This document shows positions 2,136 to 7,402 of a stretch of 64,000 nt of DNA, one piece after another (positions within the stretch are counted from its first letter, which is position 1; each line of letters opens with the position of its first letter). Made by a program: the position numbers and the translations under genes. The notes below the pieces were generated by a model. That model was not told where the DNA came from. It saw nothing but the letters and a program-made list of their open reading frames with translations, and did no database searches. Origin of the DNA: Acutalibacteraceae bacterium (lineage in GTDB: Bacteria; Bacillota; Clostridia; Oscillospirales; Acutalibacteraceae); NCBI GenBank assembly GCA_036309125.1, contig JAXJUJ010000112.1, positions 1,552 to 65,551 of the forward strand. Reading direction: 5' to 3'.

Positions 2136-2771
2136 ATGAAGAACTTAAAAATTAAAAAAACTCTGAATTTTCGCAAATATTGCATCGGGGTCAATGGCTT
2201 CGAATTTGACTGGAAGTTGATTTTAGTAATGATTTCAACGATTTCTGGTATTATAATAGGTTCACTGACAGCAAAAGGGGAGGGAAGCCTATATTTAAAT
2301 GTTATAGAAGTTATCAATAACTATCTTGTTGATAATGAATTTGAAACAACATATTCAGTTTTTATTGTTTATTTGCTTATACCTACAGTTTTTGCAATGA
2401 TACTTTTTTTCAGCGGTATGTCTCTGATAGGTGTTCCGACTGCATGTATAATACCGTTCACATTTTCGTTGTCCGGAAGTATAGTTATATATTATATGTT
2501 TGATGCATTTGCATTAAAGGGATTAGCCTATATTGTAATAATGTTATTACCATACTTAATAATATCTTTGCTATCACTGATGCTTCTTTCAATAGAAACG
2601 ATAAAAATGTCACAGTATCTTATCAGAACAATAAGCAAAACAAAACGTAATTCTGATTATAATTTTACATTATATTATAAAAACTACTTAAAAAGCTATG
2701 CGTTGATAATAATAGCGTGCATTATTAAAATAACAATTGATAAATTATTTGTCGGACTTTTTACCTTTTGA
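2136..2771 (+). CDS. polytopic membrane protein, possibly stage II sporulation protein M (SpoIIM-like)
   Basis: 211 aa with about 5 hydrophobic segments, similar in size and topology to SpoIIM. It lies next to a xerD-like gene, and spoIIM is near xerD (ripX) in Bacillus subtilis as I recall. No strong motif match. Confidence 0.45.
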   Translation: MKNLKIKKTLNFRKYCIGVNGFEFDWKLILVMISTISGIIIGSLTAKGEGSLYLNVIEVINNYLVDNEFETTYSVFIVYLLIPTVFAMILFFSGMSLIGVPTACIIPFTFSLSGSIVIYYMFDAFALKGLAYIVIMLLPYLIISLLSLMLLSIETIKMSQYLIRTISKTKRNSDYNFTLYYKNYLKSYALIIIACIIKITIDKLFVGLFTF

Positions 2772-3734
2772 TAATTTATTTAACGGATTGGATGAGACAG
2801 CTTCCTTAAGCTGGGAATCAACAATATGAGTGTATATTTCTGTAGTTGAGAGGTTTTCGTGACCGAGGATTTCTTTGATTAGAAGAACATCAACATTTCC
2901 TTGTTGATACATAAGCGTTGCTGCTGTATGTCTTAATTTATGCGTGGAAAATCCCTGATCACCAAGACCGGCTTTTTCTAAAAAGGTTTTGACAATATAT
3001 TGCACAGTTTTGGGACTTATTCTAAATTTTCTACTACTGAGAAAGAGGGCATTCTTGTCTTTAACTCCGTCAACAGGACGCACCTTCATATACTCATTCA
3101 AGGCATTGATACACATATCATTTAAATATATAATGCGTTCTTTATTTCCTTTTCCGGTAACACGCATAGTATTATCTGATCTGATATCACCATAATTCAG
3201 ATTAACTAATTCAGAAAGTCGCAGACCACAATTCAAAAAAATTGCAATAATACAGTAATCACGCTCTTTAAATTTGCCGTCAATACAATTGAGAAGGTTG
3301 ATGCTTTCGTCAAGAGTCAGATATTTAGGTAAAGCTTTTTTAGCTTTAGGTGACTCAAGCTCTTGCATAGGATTATTTTCTATCTGCCCTGTATTAACGG
3401 ACAGATATTTAAAATAAGCCCGTAGCGCAGAAGCTTTTCTTGCACGTGAAGCAGCGTCGTTGTTTCGATCAGTCTTGCAATAAGATAAAAAAGCATAAGC
3501 ATCCTGAATAGAAACAGTTTCAATTAATTCAAGATCTATTCCTGAAATATCAATCTGTTCAAAATCAATTTTACTATCAACTTTTTTTCTGAATATAAGT
3601 AAAAACTTAAAAAATAATCTCAAGTCAGATGCGTACTCTAATACAGTAAGTTCTGACTTGTTTTTAATTATACTCATATAGTTAAGGAATTCAACAACAC
3701 TTAACGGTAATTTACTGAACTCATCTTTATGCAT
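2745..3734 (-). CDS. XerC/XerD-like tyrosine recombinase
   Basis: Motifs GLRLSEL (Arg-I), THKLRHTAAT (HxxR), LGHENLSTTEIYTH (His and Tyr nucleophile). The ORF track starts at 3758, but M9 (ATG 3734) has a GGTGAT Shine-Dalgarno, and the predicted promoter would leave only about 8 nt of leader for 3758. Confidence 0.85.
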   Translation of the reverse strand: MHKDEFSKLPLSVVEFLNYMSIIKNKSELTVLEYASDLRLFFKFLLIFRKKVDSKIDFEQIDISGIDLELIETVSIQDAYAFLSYCKTDRNNDAASRARKASALRAYFKYLSVNTGQIENNPMQELESPKAKKALPKYLTLDESINLLNCIDGKFKERDYCIIAIFLNCGLRLSELVNLNYGDIRSDNTMRVTGKGNKERIIYLNDMCINALNEYMKVRPVDGVKDKNALFLSSRKFRISPKTVQYIVKTFLEKAGLGDQGFSTHKLRHTAATLMYQQGNVDVLLIKEILGHENLSTTEIYTHIVDSQLKEAVSSNPLNKLSKGKKSDK

Positions 3735-3772
3735 AATATCACCACTTAATAAGAGCATCTGTTTATATTATC

Positions 3773-3801
3773 ATTATAACAGAGGAGGCTTAAAAAGTCA
3801 A
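3773..3801 (-). promoter_or_regulatory. sigma-70-type promoter of the xerD-like gene
   Basis: On the minus strand, TTGACT (3801-3796), a 17-nt spacer, then TATAAT (3778-3773) preceded by TG (TGTTATAAT). The -35 lies 2 nt from the left palindromic site. Confidence 0.7.
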
Positions 3802-3803
3802 TT

Positions 3804-3837
3804 AATTATACAAAAGAACTAAGATTTTGTATAATTA
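3804..3837. repeat. left boundary palindromic site (att- or dif-like)
   Basis: AATTATACAAAA-GAACTAAGA-TTTTGTATAATT(A): 12-bp inverted arms with a 9-bp spacer. The same arms occur at 6535-6565. Confidence 0.6.
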
Positions 3838-4055
3838 TGAGTGCAAAGTGACGAAAGTTGTTGAGAAATATGTTTTTTCTTTCCAGCAGGCGGGAAACGC
3901 ACAGCCACAGGGCTGTAGCGAGTTTCGCGGACGTTTCGGGCCTCTGGGTTCCCGAACGTTCCGCGACGTGTCTGAAGCTGCAGCACTGTGGTGAGCGTCT
4001 CACGCTCTGCCGACACTCACTGACCGTACGTAGTGGACATAGCACAGACTTACCA

Positions 4056-4111
4056 CAGAAGGCAAACACTCACACCTTGAGGGCGCTCCCCCACGGGGGA
4101 CGGGAGGGGGC
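4056..4111 (+). repeat. 56-bp perfect direct repeat, copy A
   Basis: CAGAAGGCAAACACTCACACCTTGAGGGCGCTCCCCCACGGGGGACGGGAGGGGGC, identical to 4659-4714. Confidence 0.95.
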
Positions 4112-4146
4112 AAAACAAAAGGACCCCGACAAACGTCGGAGTCCTT
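4112..4146 (-). terminator. rho-independent terminator (minus strand) inside the GC-rich block
   Basis: The minus strand reads AAGGACUCCGAC-GUUU-GUCGGGGUCCUU followed by UUGUUUUG. The stem is 12 bp with one G-U pair. Confidence 0.8.
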
Positions 4147-4188
4147 CCGTGAAAAGTGAAGATAATCAATATCTCACACCTATCGGGC
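4112..4188 (-). ncRNA. candidate ~75-nt small RNA (promoter-to-terminator unit)
   Basis: Defined by the promoter at 4195-4223 and the terminator at 4112-4146. There is no ORF between them. Confidence 0.5.
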
Positions 4189-4194
4189 ACCTAA

Positions 4195-4223
4195 ATATTA
4201 GCACAGCCTTGTGGAAAAGTCAA
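4195..4223 (-). promoter_or_regulatory. strong sigma-70-type promoter (minus strand)
   Basis: On the minus strand, TTGACT (4223-4218), a 17-nt spacer, then TAATAT (4200-4195). An A-tract (CATCAAAAAAAGTG) immediately upstream resembles an UP element. Confidence 0.7.
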
Positions 4224-4261
4224 CACTTTTTTTGATGTCAATATATTGACCCTTCAGGGTC

Positions 4262-4352
4262 CTATGTAGCACACATCAAGGCGGACACAGCCGTCAAGGT
4301 GGAGACCGTAAGGTACTACCTTGACAGCTGTGTAATCCGCCGTGATACATAG
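4262..4352. other. long imperfect hairpin (~29 bp paired over 91 nt)
   Basis: CTATGTA..TCA.GGCGGA.ACAGC.GTCAAGGT, a 17-nt loop, then ACCTTGAC.GCTGT....TCCGCC.TGA TACATAG. Confidence 0.6.
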
Positions 4353-4658
4353 TAGTCGCTATGATAGAAAAACAGTATGCGACTGGGCGCGGGTGGGAGG
4401 CGACCGAACAAGGCGGAGCATCGCTGACCACTCACTCAATATGCTCCGCCGCAGTGAGGGTAGCGGGCGGGAATACAACTGTTCGAAGTGCCGACCACAC
4501 AACTTACCACACCACTACACTTCTCAGCTTCCCGGTAACCTGCCCCCGGCACGAGTAACCGAGAATGCGACCGGAGCAAAAGCGAAGCGGCTGTTTTTCG
4601 TGGCTGTCGGCTACCCCCGGGCGCATTCCCATAGTTGACAATTATTGCACATCTTCCT

Positions 4659-4714
4659 CAGAAGGCAAACACTCACACCTTGAGGGCGCTCCCCCACGGG
4701 GGACGGGAGGGGGC
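4659..4714 (+). repeat. 56-bp perfect direct repeat, copy B
   Basis: Identical to 4056-4111. About 20 nt of degenerate similarity extends upstream of both copies (GCACAgaCTTaCCaCAGAAGG versus GCACAtCTTCCtCAGAAGG). Confidence 0.95.
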
Positions 4715-4785
4715 TGTTCCTACCGTTTGCACTATTTTGTTATGTGGCTGTCGCTTGTATTAGACTGCCGAAGGCTGTCTGATAC

Positions 4786-4809
4786 ATTCTTGATAATATA
4801 GAAACAACG
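4786..4809 (+). promoter_or_regulatory. putative double-strand origin nick region (pC194/pUB110 type)
   Basis: ATTCTTGATAATATAGAAACAACG contains CTTGATA (4789-4795). As I recall, the pUB110 origin reads CTTGATACATATAGAAATAACG with the nick after CTTG. It lies about 45 bp upstream of rep. Confidence 0.6.
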
Positions 4810-4837
4810 TTTTTCAATAAAAAGCCTTCAATCCTTT

Positions 4838-5746
4838 ATGTATCAATGCTTTCAGCACTTTCTTATGTCTAACGATTGTCTTATAGAAGAACTTACTTAT
4901 TACAAGAATTTGACTGAAATTACTGCAGATTGTATTATAAATAATAGTGGTGCTATTATTTCAAGAGCTCAAAAAATCAAATTATGTGGTACTTTTATCG
5001 AGACTGCACACATCAGTGACGATAACGGCACGGTTCGCGAGGTGGTAACCTCTGCGAACTTCTGCCGTGAAAGACTCTGCCCGATGTGTCAAAGACGAAA
5101 GTCTTTGAAAACATCTTCAGATGTCCGAAAACTTGTTGAATATCTGAATGGCCGTGGCTGGATACATATGGTGCTGACCGTAAAGAATTGCTCTGCATCA
5201 GAGCTGGACGAAACAATAACGAAGTTGTTTCGTGACAGCTCATTTCTTATCACGAAAACGCCCGAATTCAAGAAGGCTTTTCGTGGTGCTTTGCGGTGTC
5301 TTGAAGTTACCTTCAATTCTGAGACTGATACTTATCATCCACATCTGCATGTGTTATTGAGCTCTGACAAGAGCTACAATAACAACAGCAGAAAACGCAT
5401 CAGCCGTGATCGGCTGCGTTGGTTGTGGTGGGAAGTATCAGGCATAGACTATATGCCACAAGTACACATTGATTCCAATGTTAACGAAGGTATCATCGCA
5501 GAAATAGCAAAGTACTGTGTCAAGCCTTTAGAGCTTGACTTGCCCTCTTCAAAGCGGTGCGAAGTGTTGGAGACACTTCACTCTGCTTTGCACGGTCGTC
5601 GTCTGATGCAGACTTATGGAGAAATCAAGACAGCTTTCAAAGCTCTGAAGATAGATATCAACTCTGATTCTGAAAGGGAATATGTAGCTGACACCGAACA
5701 AATGTTCGTATATGATTTTGAGCTTTCACAATATTGGAAAAGATAA
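4838..5746 (+). CDS. rep: rolling-circle replication initiator, Rep_1 (pC194/pUB110) family HUH endonuclease
   Basis: 302 aa. CRERLCPMCQRRK (compare pUB110 RepU CKSRLCPMCNWRR), MVLTVKN, HUH motif HPHLHVLL (5336-5359), active-site AEIAKYCVKP (Tyr at 5513-5515) and LHGRRLMQTYGE. There is no obvious Shine-Dalgarno. Confidence 0.9.
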   Translation: MYQCFQHFLMSNDCLIEELTYYKNLTEITADCIINNSGAIISRAQKIKLCGTFIETAHISDDNGTVREVVTSANFCRERLCPMCQRRKSLKTSSDVRKLVEYLNGRGWIHMVLTVKNCSASELDETITKLFRDSSFLITKTPEFKKAFRGALRCLEVTFNSETDTYHPHLHVLLSSDKSYNNNSRKRISRDRLRWLWWEVSGIDYMPQVHIDSNVNEGIIAEIAKYCVKPLELDLPSSKRCEVLETLHSALHGRRLMQTYGEIKTAFKALKIDINSDSEREYVADTEQMFVYDFELSQYWKR

Positions 5747-6288
5747 TTGATTTGACTTTTTATGGAAAGTCAAATCGAAAGGGGTGCTTGCTTATAAAAA
5801 GCGAATACCTTGACCCGAAGATGATCGAACATGTTTTATACGCTCTCACGCCTCAGAATAGGCTAATATGCCGAGTTTGCTTGAAAACTGGGTTGAGACT
5901 TTCTGACGTGCTTTCACTTAAAACAGACAGCCTCAGCAAGCGTATGACAATACGCGAGCTGAAAACAGGAAAGAAAAAGACTTTCACCATTGGTGACCGT
6001 CTTTTTCGTGAGATGTCGGTTCAGGCTGGACAGGTGTATGTGTTCCCACACCGCTCTGATCCTGATCGGCACAAAACAAGGCAAGCTGTATACGCTGATC
6101 TGAAACGAGCTTCTAAGGCTTTTCGGGTCAAGTGCAACTTTTCTCCGCATAGCTTGCGGAAGGTTTACGCTGTGGAATTGTACAAAAAATACGGTGATCT
6201 GAAGCGAGTTCAGAATGCTCTGAATCACGATAATGATGTTGTAACAATCATTTATGCTTTAGCAGATGAACTTCAGCGTAGAAAATAA
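5734..6288 (+). CDS. small tyrosine recombinase (catalytic domain only)
   Basis: 184 aa. Arg-I in TGLRLSD (R55), Lys in ELKTGKKK, HSLRK (H139/R142), ALNHDN (H165) and TIIY (Y174). The TTG start overlaps the rep stop by 13 nt, and the exact start is uncertain (alternative TTG at 5788 after AAAGGGG). Confidence 0.85.
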   Translation: MEKIIDLTFYGKSNRKGCLLIKSEYLDPKMIEHVLYALTPQNRLICRVCLKTGLRLSDVLSLKTDSLSKRMTIRELKTGKKKTFTIGDRLFREMSVQAGQVYVFPHRSDPDRHKTRQAVYADLKRASKAFRVKCNFSPHSLRKVYAVELYKKYGDLKRVQNALNHDNDVVTIIYALADELQRRK

Positions 6289-6324
6289 AAAAGAGACTCA
6301 CTGTTGACAGTGGGTCTCTTTTTG
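6287..6324. terminator. bidirectional rho-independent terminator after the recombinase gene
   Basis: AAAAA-AGAGACTCAC-tgttgaca-GTGGGTCTCT-TTTTG: a 10-bp stem with an A-run on one side and a T-run on the other. Confidence 0.85.
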
Positions 6325-6387
6325 TGTTAAGTTATAACCGACAGATGCGGGGAAGCTTCTATCACGGGCGTTGGGTTATAACCTTAC
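6287..6387 (-). ncRNA. candidate ~100-nt small RNA (second promoter-to-terminator unit)
   Basis: The promoter at 6394-6422 fires toward the terminator at 6287-6324. The transcript would contain the GGTTATAAC / GTTATAACC pairing (6374-6382 / 6331-6339). No ORF with an RBS. Confidence 0.4.
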
Positions 6388-6393
6388 TTTGTG

Positions 6394-6422
6394 ATAATAT
6401 CATAGCTTTCAACTGTTGTCAA
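6394..6422 (-). promoter_or_regulatory. sigma-70-type promoter (minus strand)
   Basis: On the minus strand, TTGACA (6422-6417), a 17-nt spacer, then TATTAT (6399-6394). Confidence 0.6.
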
Positions 6423-6478
6423 TAGAAACTTTCAGAGAGGAGTGAACTGACTGAAAGCAGATACTGAACGAAATAATT

Positions 6479-6500
6479 CTACAAAATCTATCTTTTGTAG
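6479..6500. repeat. third, shorter palindromic site related to the boundary sites
   Basis: CTACAAAA-TCTATC-TTTTGTAG: 8-bp arms with a 6-bp spacer. It shares the ACAAAA/TTTTGT core with the boundary sites. Confidence 0.5.
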
Positions 6501-6534
6501 CCGAGGTTTGGTCGGCTTTAATTGCTGTTTAAGC

Positions 6535-6565
6535 AATTATACAAAAGAAATATTTTGTATAATTA
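6535..6565. repeat. right boundary palindromic site (att- or dif-like)
   Basis: AATTATACAAAA-GAAATA-TTTTGTATAATT(A): 12-bp arms with a 6-bp spacer. Confidence 0.6.
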
Positions 6566-6634
6566 AGGGGAGTTTGTAATAAGAATATACCGTATTTTTT
6601 GCAAATACAGTTAATATTCCCATTATAATGACTA

Positions 6635-7402
6635 TTAACTTTGTAATAACGGAATTATACCACCGATATCAATCAATGGACCTTCAGACAATTCAATGTA
6701 ATTAATATTATATTTTAAAAGAAAATCTTTAATTAAATCTCCATCGATGTGTGTATCAAGTTTACCTGTAAAGACAATCAGGTTTTTATCAAGCATACCA
6801 CAAGTTCCGCCGATAAAACCGTATTCACGACCTTTTAATACAACCGAGCCTTTTCTGATTAAAAGACAATCAAATCCATTATTCACAGCAGTCTTATATA
6901 TTGATTCATCATCAGTTATTAAAGCATTTTCTTTAATTAATACAACTGAACAAGCGGCATATCCTTGATTTACGTGGATTAATTCATACTGATGTAATTT
7001 AGCGTAATTCTCCAATGAATTATCAATATATTTAGTGTTACATAAAATTTTATTTCCGGCAACGGTTACATTTAACTTTACATCACCCGGATATGGTGAA
7101 GAAATTTTGTGTTCTGAAACAATTAATTTAATTTCATTATTCAGATTATTAATTGTTAAATAATTAACAATTATAAATTTTAAACTTTCGTCTATAATAA
7201 CACAGTTTTCGCTTACCTGTATAAATCTGCAGTCTGCATGTGTGGCAATATCCGTAAACATCTTGTCATTATATGGAATCTCAACGACCTCAATGCCCCA
7301 AATATCTCTAATTTTTTGTGAAATCAGTGGATACTCCGAAGAAATTAATACAGACAGCACTTTTTTGTCAGGTAACAACGGTTTAACAGGAAGTTTTTTC
7401 AA
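6635..7402 (-). CDS. conserved hypothetical protein (possibly a DUF6873-type guanidino-group-modifying-enzyme fold)
   Basis: 255-aa ORF with host-like composition, located downstream of radA. The GFIGGTCGML motif is near the C-terminus. The family assignment is from memory only. Confidence 0.6.
   Translation of the reverse strand: MKKLPVKPLLPDKKVLSVLISSEYPLISQKIRDIWGIEVVEIPYNDKMFTDIATHADCRFIQVSENCVIIDESLKFIIVNYLTINNLNNEIKLIVSEHKISSPYPGDVKLNVTVAGNKILCNTKYIDNSLENYAKLHQYELIHVNQGYAACSVVLIKENALITDDESIYKTAVNNGFDCLLIRKGSVVLKGREYGFIGGTCGMLDKNLIVFTGKLDTHIDGDLIKDFLLKYNINYIELSEGPLIDIGGIIPLLQS

Follow-up and report, generated by a model that had tools for sequence, protein, structure and literature searches.

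A GC-rich, hairpin-dense block of an integrated Rep_1 plasmid from Acutalibacteraceae as a candidate enlarged single-strand origin with an embedded small RNA gene

The window analyzed here, a 64,000-nt stretch of contig JAXJUJ010000112.1 from an Acutalibacteraceae bacterium (assembly GCA_036309125.1), contains between positions 3842 and 4785 a GC-rich, hairpin-dense block. An earlier reading made from the letters and their translations (hereafter the sequence-only reading) had offered three options for this block: a large structured RNA, a giant leader of the neighboring rep gene or an atypical single-strand origin (sso). The block forms the large non-coding stretch of a rolling-circle plasmid of ~2.7 kb that encodes a Rep_1-type replication protein and has integrated at a dif-like site beside an xer gene. 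We put at about 0.6 the probability that it constitutes a composite replication control region, in which an enlarged, ssoT-like lagging-strand origin is combined with a small regulatory RNA gene, and which has been rearranged in this particular copy. The single-strand origin is hence the option that we retain, in composite form, while the large structured RNA and the giant rep leader are not favored by the evidence. The origin is preferred because motifs resembling two of the elements of the block, termed R and H, occur in the experimentally characterized origins of pTA1060 and pTA1040, and because both elements are locked to the rep strand, that is, to the strand nicked by Rep.

In the proposed mechanism, Rep would nick at the CTTGATA motif (4789-4801) and the displaced plus strand would fold, forming hairpin H with its TTGACA and TGnTA motifs, the two copies of R (R1 and R2), a G-tract domain and flanking helices. 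The modular build of the block, its conservation, the covariation of H and of the small-RNA terminator, the strand lock of R and H and the motifs in common with validated origins are demonstrated, whereas priming, the part played by each module and what the small RNA acts on are inferred; by analogy with characterized origins, host RNA polymerase would recognize the folded DNA and make a short primer for the complementary strand. The embedded minus-strand gene would independently produce an RNA of ~77 nt resembling the countertranscripts that control plasmid copy number.

Composition, coding potential and folding of the block

The GC content of the block reaches 53.9%, compared with 37.2% for the whole window, which is the top value among all windows of 944 nt and agrees with the enrichment first noticed by eye; the next GC-richest region, within the rep gene, stands at 43.5%. 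The absence of a credible open reading frame (ORF) was likewise confirmed. The longest stop-free stretch spans 127 aa, the ORF listing contains only short overlapping frames on both strands, and an all-against-all blastp comparison of stop-free stretches of at least 35 aa from 10 homologous blocks found no conserved reading frame, with translated matches limited to short patches in six frames and on both strands.

Every helix listed by the sequence-only reading (3901-3916, 3926-3965, 3993-4007, 4119-4146, 4248-4261, 4262-4352, 4354-4384 and 4412-4450) is present, and the block folds far better than its dinucleotide shuffles on both strands, with minimum free energies of -371.8 kcal/mol for the plus-strand RNA (z = -7.9; 0/20 shuffles as good) and -386.7 kcal/mol for the minus-strand RNA (z = -5.2). 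A pseudoknot that had been suggested between the loop CCACTCAC and a downstream GTGAG did not hold up, the complementarity being lost in two relatives (L003 and L127). Under DNA parameters, the plus strand out-folds the minus strand in nine of 10 blocks. Whole-block energies under RNA parameters favor the minus strand in the long subfamily described below, an advantage that we attribute to the A+C-rich plus strand and the additional G-U options that it affords the complement, and the strand comparison rests on z-scores and DNA parameters, not on whole-block RNA energies. The analysis also uncovered a direct repeat of 59 nt, unmentioned by the sequence-only reading, at 4053-4111 and 4656-4714 (58/59 identical, 98%), with its copies 603 bp apart.

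A homologous block, extending from a dif-like site to the nick motif, is conserved in 10 distinct plasmids (706-1012 nt, 53-64% GC), which make up a family with Rep proteins 56-88% identical to that of the window; loci are cited below by L numbers where they need to be told apart. The block resolves into the following modules, given in window coordinates:

3842-4052, plus strand: module A, variable GC-rich hairpins at 3901-3916, 3926-3965 and 3993-4007
4053-4111, plus strand: R1, a CACACC box with GCGCT-C5-ACG-G5-ACGGGA-G5 (direct repeat D1), a C-run/G-run hairpin and a further G-run
4110-4223, minus strand: module T, the small RNA gene, with -35 at 4223-4218, -10 at 4200-4195, terminator stem at 4148-4119 and U-run to 4110
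4248-4261, plus strand: hairpin h, GACCC-TTCA-GGGTC, directly upstream of H
4262-4352, plus strand: hairpin H, core GTCAAGG...CCTTGAC, stem of roughly 30 bp, candidate single-strand promoter and core of the sso
4354-4384, plus strand: hairpin AGTCGC...GCGACT between H and G1 (AGTTGC/GCGACT in L003, with a T-G pair on the plus strand)
4391-4481, plus strand: G-tract domain, with G1 (GGGTGGG, 4391-4397), variable helices including the hairpin at 4412-4450, and G2 (GGGCGGG, 4465-4471)
4482-4655, plus strand: 'post' domain, with helices GTGCCG (4488-4493)/CGGCAC (4547-4552) and TGCGACCGG (4566-4574)/CCGGGCGCA (4617-4625)
4656-4714, plus strand: R2, the second copy of R, 58/59 identical to R1
4715-4756, plus strand: junction segment C', with a remnant of ~16 nt at the position of module T in relatives
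4757-4801, plus strand: double-strand origin (dso), with hairpin GTATTAGAC...GTCTGATAC at 4757-4785 and nick motif CTTGATAATATAG at 4789-4801

Hairpin H covaries and is locked to the rep strand

The long-hairpin fold of H is found in 10/10 family members, with about 20-30 paired positions per arm. Across 31 distinct sequences from Rep_1 plasmids, the 24-pair helix of H covaries strongly: 75.9% of cells are paired, against 58.6% after shuffling of partners (0/500 shuffles as high), double-change cells number 168 against 82 in shuffles, and the covariation score reaches 0.44, against 0.156 for shuffled partners and 0.14-0.20 when the partner is slid by 1-3 columns. These values were obtained on a re-alignment with ungapped arms; MAFFT had misplaced bulges, and RNAalifold on the first H alignment gave a poor structure. 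A covariance model of H (designated model R1, and distinct from the repeat R1) identifies the hairpin in the window at 4277-4341 on the plus strand (43.8 bits) and in about 40 of 100 Rep-bearing loci, sometimes at 2 kb from rep.

The outer core of H is a perfect palindrome, so that a regular expression matches it on either strand, and the interior is asymmetric, with a small GC hairpin next to GTCAAGG and a tail of 8-11 nt next to CCTTGAC. When loci are oriented by rep, 23 matches to this expression have the tail on the 3' side against 7 that do not, and the clear cases, ~20 in number, all have it there. This orientation holds also in plasmids in which H is ~2 kb away from rep or borders a gene of the opposite strand. 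The palindrome-based test was used in place of a strand comparison of model R1 scores, which was discarded for the bias toward plus that plus-oriented seeds introduce. The arms of H contain 133 G-T oppositions against 89 A-C oppositions.

The 3' arm of H carries TTGACA and, further out, TGnTA(N)3T, which resemble a -35 and an extended -10 element. Counting in the window sequence gave no support to a fixed -35/-10 distance, in base pairs, along the stem of H, and this idea was dropped. In another Rep_1 class (L010, L013, L032, L034, L035, L042, L043 and L062), the 5' arm of H overlaps a gene of the opposite strand at its start codon and ribosome-binding site, and a -10-like TATAAT on the 3' arm faces non-complementary bases, forming a bubble. 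A scan of viral contigs for GTCAAGGTGGARRGCG returned at least 120 matches on large phage contigs, which look like chance.

Motifs of element R and hairpin H recur in validated single-strand origins

Element R is kept in 10/10 family members as a succession of CACACC box, GCGCT, C5-6, short loop, G5-6, ACGGGA (in some members a variant) and another G-run. Among Rep-oriented loci, the R-like pattern of C-run, G-run, short linker and G-run occurs as 32 distinct elements on the rep strand and as one on the opposite strand. One of the 32, at position 6469 of pTA1060, lies inside its single-strand origin.

The origins of pTA1060 (NC_001766, 6349-6549) and pTA1040 (NC_001764, 5109-5307) have been studied experimentally, and for the class to which they belong a function has been shown: single-stranded plasmid DNA is reduced and stability increased, in one orientation only (PMC4595007). 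Described single-strand origins measure 168-340 nt, with the upper value in pUB110, and sso1 of ICEBs1 was recognized through its 76% identity to pTA1060 (PMC4595007). Both the pTA1060 and the pTA1040 origin contain a hairpin with arms GAGTCAAC and GTTGACTC that enclose, in this order, a small hairpin and an A-rich tail; its interior is asymmetric in the same sense as that of H, and in pTA1060 it is followed by GTGCTAC. At ~110 nt past this hairpin, both present the sequence CCCCC(C)...GGGGG(G)-T(A/T)-GGGGG(G). In four further loci (L048, L050, L053 and L055), R lies ~100 nt after H, in the order of pTA1060; in the family of the window it lies 54-70 nt before H, with a second R ~330 nt after H in the long subfamily. 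H and R, the modules with the best support, thus correspond at the motif level to the hallmarks of this class, and with a conserved domain downstream they make up an sso-like core.

G-tract domain, 'post' domain and double-strand origin

Downstream of H, the guanines of G1 and G2 are invariant in 10/10 plasmids and the distance from H to G1 is kept at 59-66 nt, whereas the 37-65 nt between the two tracts vary and are not alignable. RNAalifold on MAFFT alignments found no common structure for this interior. G2 takes the form GGGCGGGA.AT across the family and lies inside a 21-mer, TAGCGGGCGGGAATACAACTG (4461-4481), that is invariant in the window, L002 and L003. The two tracts together conform to a G-quadruplex motif, with four G3 runs on one strand, 1-nt loops and a helix-forming central loop, and from their sequence a split G-quadruplex on the displaced strand is possible; alternatively, G1 and G2 may bind a protein or take part in an RNA fold.

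The 'post' domain contains a conserved unpaired motif, GAGTAACC, at 4553-4560, with GAGAAACC as a variant in the family. Its first helix reads GCGCCG/CGGCGC in L003 and L002 and GCGGA/TCCGC in L127, and the second is perfect in L003 and L002; judged by eye from the sequences, these long-range helices show compensatory differences. At the end of the block, the last 14 aligned columns, which contain the nick motif, are invariant in 11/11 aligned blocks, and the dso hairpin is conserved with compensatory variation. A candidate rep promoter, TTGATA-16-TATTAT, overlaps the nick site and recurs at the equivalent position in L127; its -35 element may be supplied by the TTGATA of the nick motif.

Module order across the family and rearrangement of this copy

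The order of modules is fixed in the family: A, R, small hairpin, H, G1, G2, further helices, origin hairpin and nick. Module A is the least conserved part, and the one nearest the dif-like site; its sequence is weakly conserved family-wide, but it aligns with L003 and L001 and its 3926-3965 hairpin shows compensatory changes. Small hairpins matching h occupy the same place in L003, L123 and L127. The long subfamily (the window, L003, L123, L124, L127 and, in part, L002) presents an extra R and module T between the 'post' domain and the origin, and in the short subfamily the small RNA is missing while the core is present.

The window copy deviates from this order, with T placed after R1 and ~16 nt left at its usual place. 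The remainder of C' is homologous to the region of L002 on the dso side of the small-RNA promoter (blastn, window 4731-4823 against L002 383-473, 89%). The size of 944 nt in this copy results from the addition of modules, the duplication of R as the 59-nt direct repeat, which accounts for much of it, and the relocation of the small-RNA module to a position after R1. The objection that the block is too large for a single-strand origin is weakened by this division into modules and by the published lengths of up to 340 nt (pUB110; PMC4595007).

Two further sets of loci bear on the plasticity of the region. L001, which is integrated and has a Rep 98% identical to that of the window, contains a single R and is shorter by one 603-bp repeat unit (e.g. 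4112-4714), H included. This is the outcome expected of recombination between the two R copies, and the loss of H in an integrated element agrees with a function needed only for autonomous replication. In L138 and L139 (circular, Rep 55%), the same backbone carries at the same position a non-homologous block of 994 nt with 54% GC and neither the H nor the R motif, which suggests cassette exchange of the origin region.

A conserved gene for a small minus-strand RNA

The sequence-only reading had noted a strong minus-strand promoter at 4195-4223. This promoter matches the consensus (TTGACT-17-TAATAT with an upstream TG, 4223-4195, minus strand) and belongs to a conserved gene for a small RNA, module T, in which a hairpin and U-run (4148-4110) follow ~40 nt past the promoter. 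The predicted RNA would start near 4188 and extend to 4112, for a length of ~77 nt. A promoter of the form TTGAC[AT]-17/18-TAnnAT and the terminator are kept in five plasmids (the window, L003, L123, L124 and L127), and in the latter four 75-85 nt lead to the end of a long terminator. Among 17 aligned pairs of the terminator, 10 present compensatory changes, and one U-G pair is invariant in 5/5 sequences and would be a C-A mismatch on the plus strand; this pairing pattern is good evidence for a genuine minus-strand RNA.

The Rfam family ctRNA_p42d (RF00489) matches the terminator region (4148-4110, minus strand) with 24.9 bits and an E-value of 0.033, below the gathering score of 50. At the level of functional class, module T shows three traits of a countertranscript RNA (ctRNA): its own promoter, an intrinsic terminator and an orientation opposite to rep.

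The template for the 5' end of the small RNA contains a 16-nt box, CTCACACCT..G/CGGC, that recurs in both copies of R (4069-4084 in R1, 4173-4188 in T and 4672-4687 in R2) and is also found in L003, L123, L124 and L127. Within each plasmid the first 8 nt of this box are identical or nearly so between R2 and T, and they differ between plasmids (CTCACACC, CCCACACC, CTCCCACC and TTCCCT(C/T)C). Furthermore, the terminator of T always abuts a copy of R. The co-variation of the R2 and T boxes could reflect pairing with a common partner or gene conversion between neighboring repeats.

Weighing the origin against alternative explanations

Several observations weigh against an enlarged single-strand origin with a regulatory RNA gene. 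The link to ssoT consists of two short motifs and their arrangement: at the motif level the block agrees with that class in strand orientation and motif set, it lacks recognizable sequence similarity to it or to other known origins, and we claim no homology. A blastn search in 'distant' mode with 3780-4840 against 72,556 plasmids (PLSDB) and 50,697 phages gave no match, and an nhmmer profile from H through most of the downstream domain found matches confined to the close family. With filters off, model R1 found only generic hairpins and no match to H in pTA1060 (6349-6549), pUB110 or pC194. The order of R and H in the family of the window is unlike that of pTA1060, and the stretch conserved between R and the nick, which measures about 480 nt even in the short subfamily, exceeds the 168-340 nt of described origins, in which the G-tract and 'post' domains have no counterpart. 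The promoter-like elements of H are spaced by 17-20 nt here and by ~6-10 nt in another class of H hairpins, which makes their reading as a single-strand promoter a loose one. As for the small RNA, its duplexes with the region between the nick and rep have energies no better than those of shuffled RNA (z from -1.3 to +0.4), and targeting of the rep start region in trans was rejected on these grounds; no conserved plus-strand promoter was found upstream of T, which may still overlap a transcript from further upstream. Finally, covariation and the plus-strand folding bias fit a displaced DNA strand as well as a plus-strand RNA and do not separate the two, and an RNA could just as well account for the conserved unpaired motifs of the G-tract and 'post' domains.

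An alternative that we consider unlikely is a large structured plus-strand RNA, either stand-alone or a long rep leader starting from the H motifs or from hexamers of the dif-like site, with control of Rep exerted by its fold and by pairing of the small RNA at the CACACC boxes. Such an RNA would account for the strong plus-strand fold (z = -7.9) and for the conserved unpaired G1, G2 and GAGTAACC, set apart by variable helices. The small-RNA 5' box co-varies with the R2 box in each plasmid, as predicted for a pairing partner on a plus-strand transcript, and relatives have the small-RNA module placed between R2 and rep, where a countertranscript is classically found. A promoter-like TATACA-17-TATAAT is also aimed into the block. 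The extended -10 that had been reported at 3828-3835, TGTATAAT, does exist, but it is merely the right arm of the palindromic dif-like site at 3802-3837.

Against such an RNA, no conserved plus-strand promoter was found inside the block in the window, L003, L004 or L127, nor a plus-strand terminator, and the rep promoter candidate lies at the nick site, which argues in particular against the giant leader. A search of window positions 2500-7000 with the 4227 models of Rfam 15 returned at E<=1 only three sub-threshold matches at chance level, the ctRNA match included, and 11 related loci yielded nothing at E<=0.1, so that membership in the ROOL or GOLLD classes finds no support in the window or its relatives. 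In addition, the H and R motifs are common to origins that work as single-stranded DNA; in other plasmids H lies 2 kb downstream of rep with its orientation unchanged; the short subfamily retains the core without the small RNA; and in the window the small-RNA gene stands upstream of H, where it would not overlap a leader starting at H.

A more speculative version of the origin itself, to which we give little credence, is a lagging-strand origin regulated by RNA and built on non-canonical DNA, with a split G-quadruplex clamped by helices and a hairpin or triplex-like structure at R. In this version the small RNA would pair at R with the single-stranded DNA intermediate or with a transcript, and would license, prime or block synthesis of the complementary strand. 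If true, rolling-circle replicons would have a novel way of controlling copy number or strand conversion.

It is quite improbable that the block serves instead as an accessory or substrate for site-specific recombination by the host Xer protein and/or the catalytic-domain-only recombinase of the element, in the manner of cer/psi arms or of folded single-stranded attachment sites. The block does abut a dif-like site in every family member, the element is known in free and integrated form, rolling-circle replication supplies single-stranded DNA, and the repeated CACACC boxes (R1, R2 and T) could bind a protein. The dif-like site, however, is complete as a duplex palindrome and has no need of folding; H and R are found in Rep_1 plasmids far from dif-like sites and inside the mapped replication origin of pTA1060; and module A, nearest the dif-like site, is the least conserved. 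Nor does the block resemble or complement the dif-like sites over more than words of 8-9 nt. By the same figure, no support is found for the proposal that an RNA from the block provides target recognition for the recombinase, as a bridge-RNA-like guide would: the longest words shared with or complementary to the three dif-like sites are of 8-9 nt, and we estimate that ~1.5 such 8-mers per site arise by chance.

Functionless passenger DNA, such as a decayed gene or a fragment from a GC-rich organism, can be set aside as scarcely credible: a composition far from that of the host, spurious ORFs of up to 127 aa, the rearrangement of the window copy and the loss of 603 bp in L001 would fit it, but module order, spacing and motifs are kept while Rep is only 56-88% identical, H evolves in a compensatory manner, no frame is conserved, and a 2.7-kb replicon, of which the block occupies about a third, would face pressure to shed useless DNA.

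The integrated plasmid and its host locus

The block and its flanking genes are arranged as follows:

2745-3758, minus strand: Xer-type tyrosine recombinase, 337 aa
3802-3837: left dif-like palindromic site, TTAATTATACAAAA-N8-TTTTGTATAATTA, the plasmid boundary, with promoter-like hexamers on both strands
4838-5746: rep gene, Pfam Rep_1, to the right of the nick motif
5734-6288, plus strand: tyrosine recombinase of 184 aa, catalytic domain only (Pfam Phage_integrase, residues 28-177)
6474-6499 and 6535-6566: two right-end dif-like sites, the one degenerate and the other closely resembling the left site

Inverted repeats I14 and I18 and direct repeats D8 and D10 tie the left site (3802-3837) to the one at 6535-6566, and in circular relatives the same dif-like site stands ahead of the block. 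L003 likewise presents two dif-like sites in tandem; the tandem sites at the right end could be the remnant of successive integrations. Between the two (6474-6499 and 6535-6566) lies a small hairpin, GCCGAGGTTTGGTCGGC. Beyond the right end of the element, host genes encoding a DUF6873 protein and RadA follow.

Rep homologs (185 at E<=0.001) are found mostly on contigs of 2.5-3.2 kb, and many relatives, from gut Oscillospirales, are circular contigs of 2.5-2.8 kb, as judged by terminal k-mer overlaps; the genome matches are metagenome-assembled genomes of Acutalibacteraceae, Oscillospiraceae and related Clostridia. Another lineage (Rep 62%) is represented by 24 contigs and, in most of the cases displayed, sits at the same chromosomal position; its visible flanks comprise a SpoIIM-like gene, xer, the element, the DUF6873 gene and radA. 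The element has the look of an integrative plasmid of the IMEX type, known as circles and as copies inserted directly next to the xer gene of the host, with at least two lineages using one chromosomal locus (2745-6566; L131-L136, L004, L124 and L127). This organization may be more novel than the block itself. The host dif-like site adjoins the gene for its own recombinase, an arrangement seen also with XerS/difSL in streptococci.

The longest rep ORF begins at the ATG at 4838, and relatives align from a conserved ATGTCTAA (window 4866), with called proteins 6-9 residues shorter; from this alignment, the true start of rep is probably the downstream ATG. Residues 42-115 of Rep show a weak match, below cut-off, to the zinc-binding domain of IS91-family transposases (PF14319, E 4.4e-5), which are rolling-circle enzymes of the HUH type. 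The start of the small recombinase gene overlaps the end of rep, and the versions in relatives measure 147-184 aa. Behind this gene (6288-6323) lies a strong hairpin resembling a bidirectional terminator, AAAAAGAGACTCACTGT/ACAGTGGGTCTCTTTTT, beyond which two copies of GTT(A/G)(A/G)GTTATAACC are found 44 nt apart (6326-6383).

Comparison with known systems

Work on single-strand origins has centered on plasmids of Bacilli, and to our knowledge no description exists of those carried by the small plasmids that abound in gut Clostridia. The striking GC-rich, hairpin-dense island of this window would be accounted for by known plasmid biology and not by a new class of large RNA. It would be an origin-like region taking up a third of its replicon, in which two motifs of validated ssoT origins have been kept and conserved G-tract modules and a small RNA gene have been added. 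If confirmed, strand-locked H and R would offer a signature for annotating lagging-strand origins in metagenomic plasmids, the region could serve as a part for stable shuttle vectors for Oscillospirales, and it would provide a test case for G-rich folds in strand conversion.

The block resembles the large RNAs ROOL, GOLLD, HEARO/omega RNA and OLE in its size of 0.5-1 kb, its GC richness relative to the host, its many helices and its location on a mobile element of Firmicutes. It differs from them in matching none of the 4227 Rfam models and in having no delimiting promoter or terminator. Module T, in turn, is similar to ctRNAs such as RNAI/II of pT181, RNAII of pMV158 and the RF00489 family in being a small RNA (about 75-85 nt) with a strong promoter of its own and an intrinsic terminator, encoded opposite to rep. 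Unlike these, it overlaps no demonstrated rep transcript, it lies 600 nt from rep in the window, and its 5' box matches the box of element R.

Origins of the ssoA class (pT181, pE194 and pLS1/pMV158) and Frpo of the F plasmid resemble H in having a long imperfect hairpin with -35/-10-like elements, on which, in those systems, host RNA polymerase makes a primer; ssoA origins, of about 130-230 nt, have in addition an RSB element and the 6-nt CS-6 sequence, TAGCGT/A, in the terminal loop. The sequence GTAGC is found in five of the 10 H loops of the family, four of them as GCGTAGCG. The loop of the window copy is CCGTAAGG, not TAGCG, and a TAGCGA is present at 3917-3922, beside a hairpin of module A.

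The closest resemblance is to the ssoT origins of pBAA1, pTA1060, pTA1040 and pTA1015 and to sso1 of ICEBs1, with which the block shares a non-coding, GC-rich, multi-hairpin character, location on the displaced strand of a Rep_1-type replicon and specificity of orientation. Like ssoT, it contains a GTCAA...TTGAC hairpin that encloses a smaller hairpin and a tail on the 3' side, together with a C-run/G-run stem-loop followed by a second G-run. The stem of H is roughly 30 bp long, compared with about 12 bp as read in pTA1060, and its core is GTCAAGG in place of GAGTCAAC; R lies upstream of H and is duplicated; the block is 2-5 times longer than the ssoT origins of ~200 nt; and the G-tract domain, the 'post' domain and the small-RNA gene are extra. 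Taken as an origin, the block differs from those described in the length of its main hairpin, its overall size and its added G-tract modules, and is otherwise ordinary in kind.

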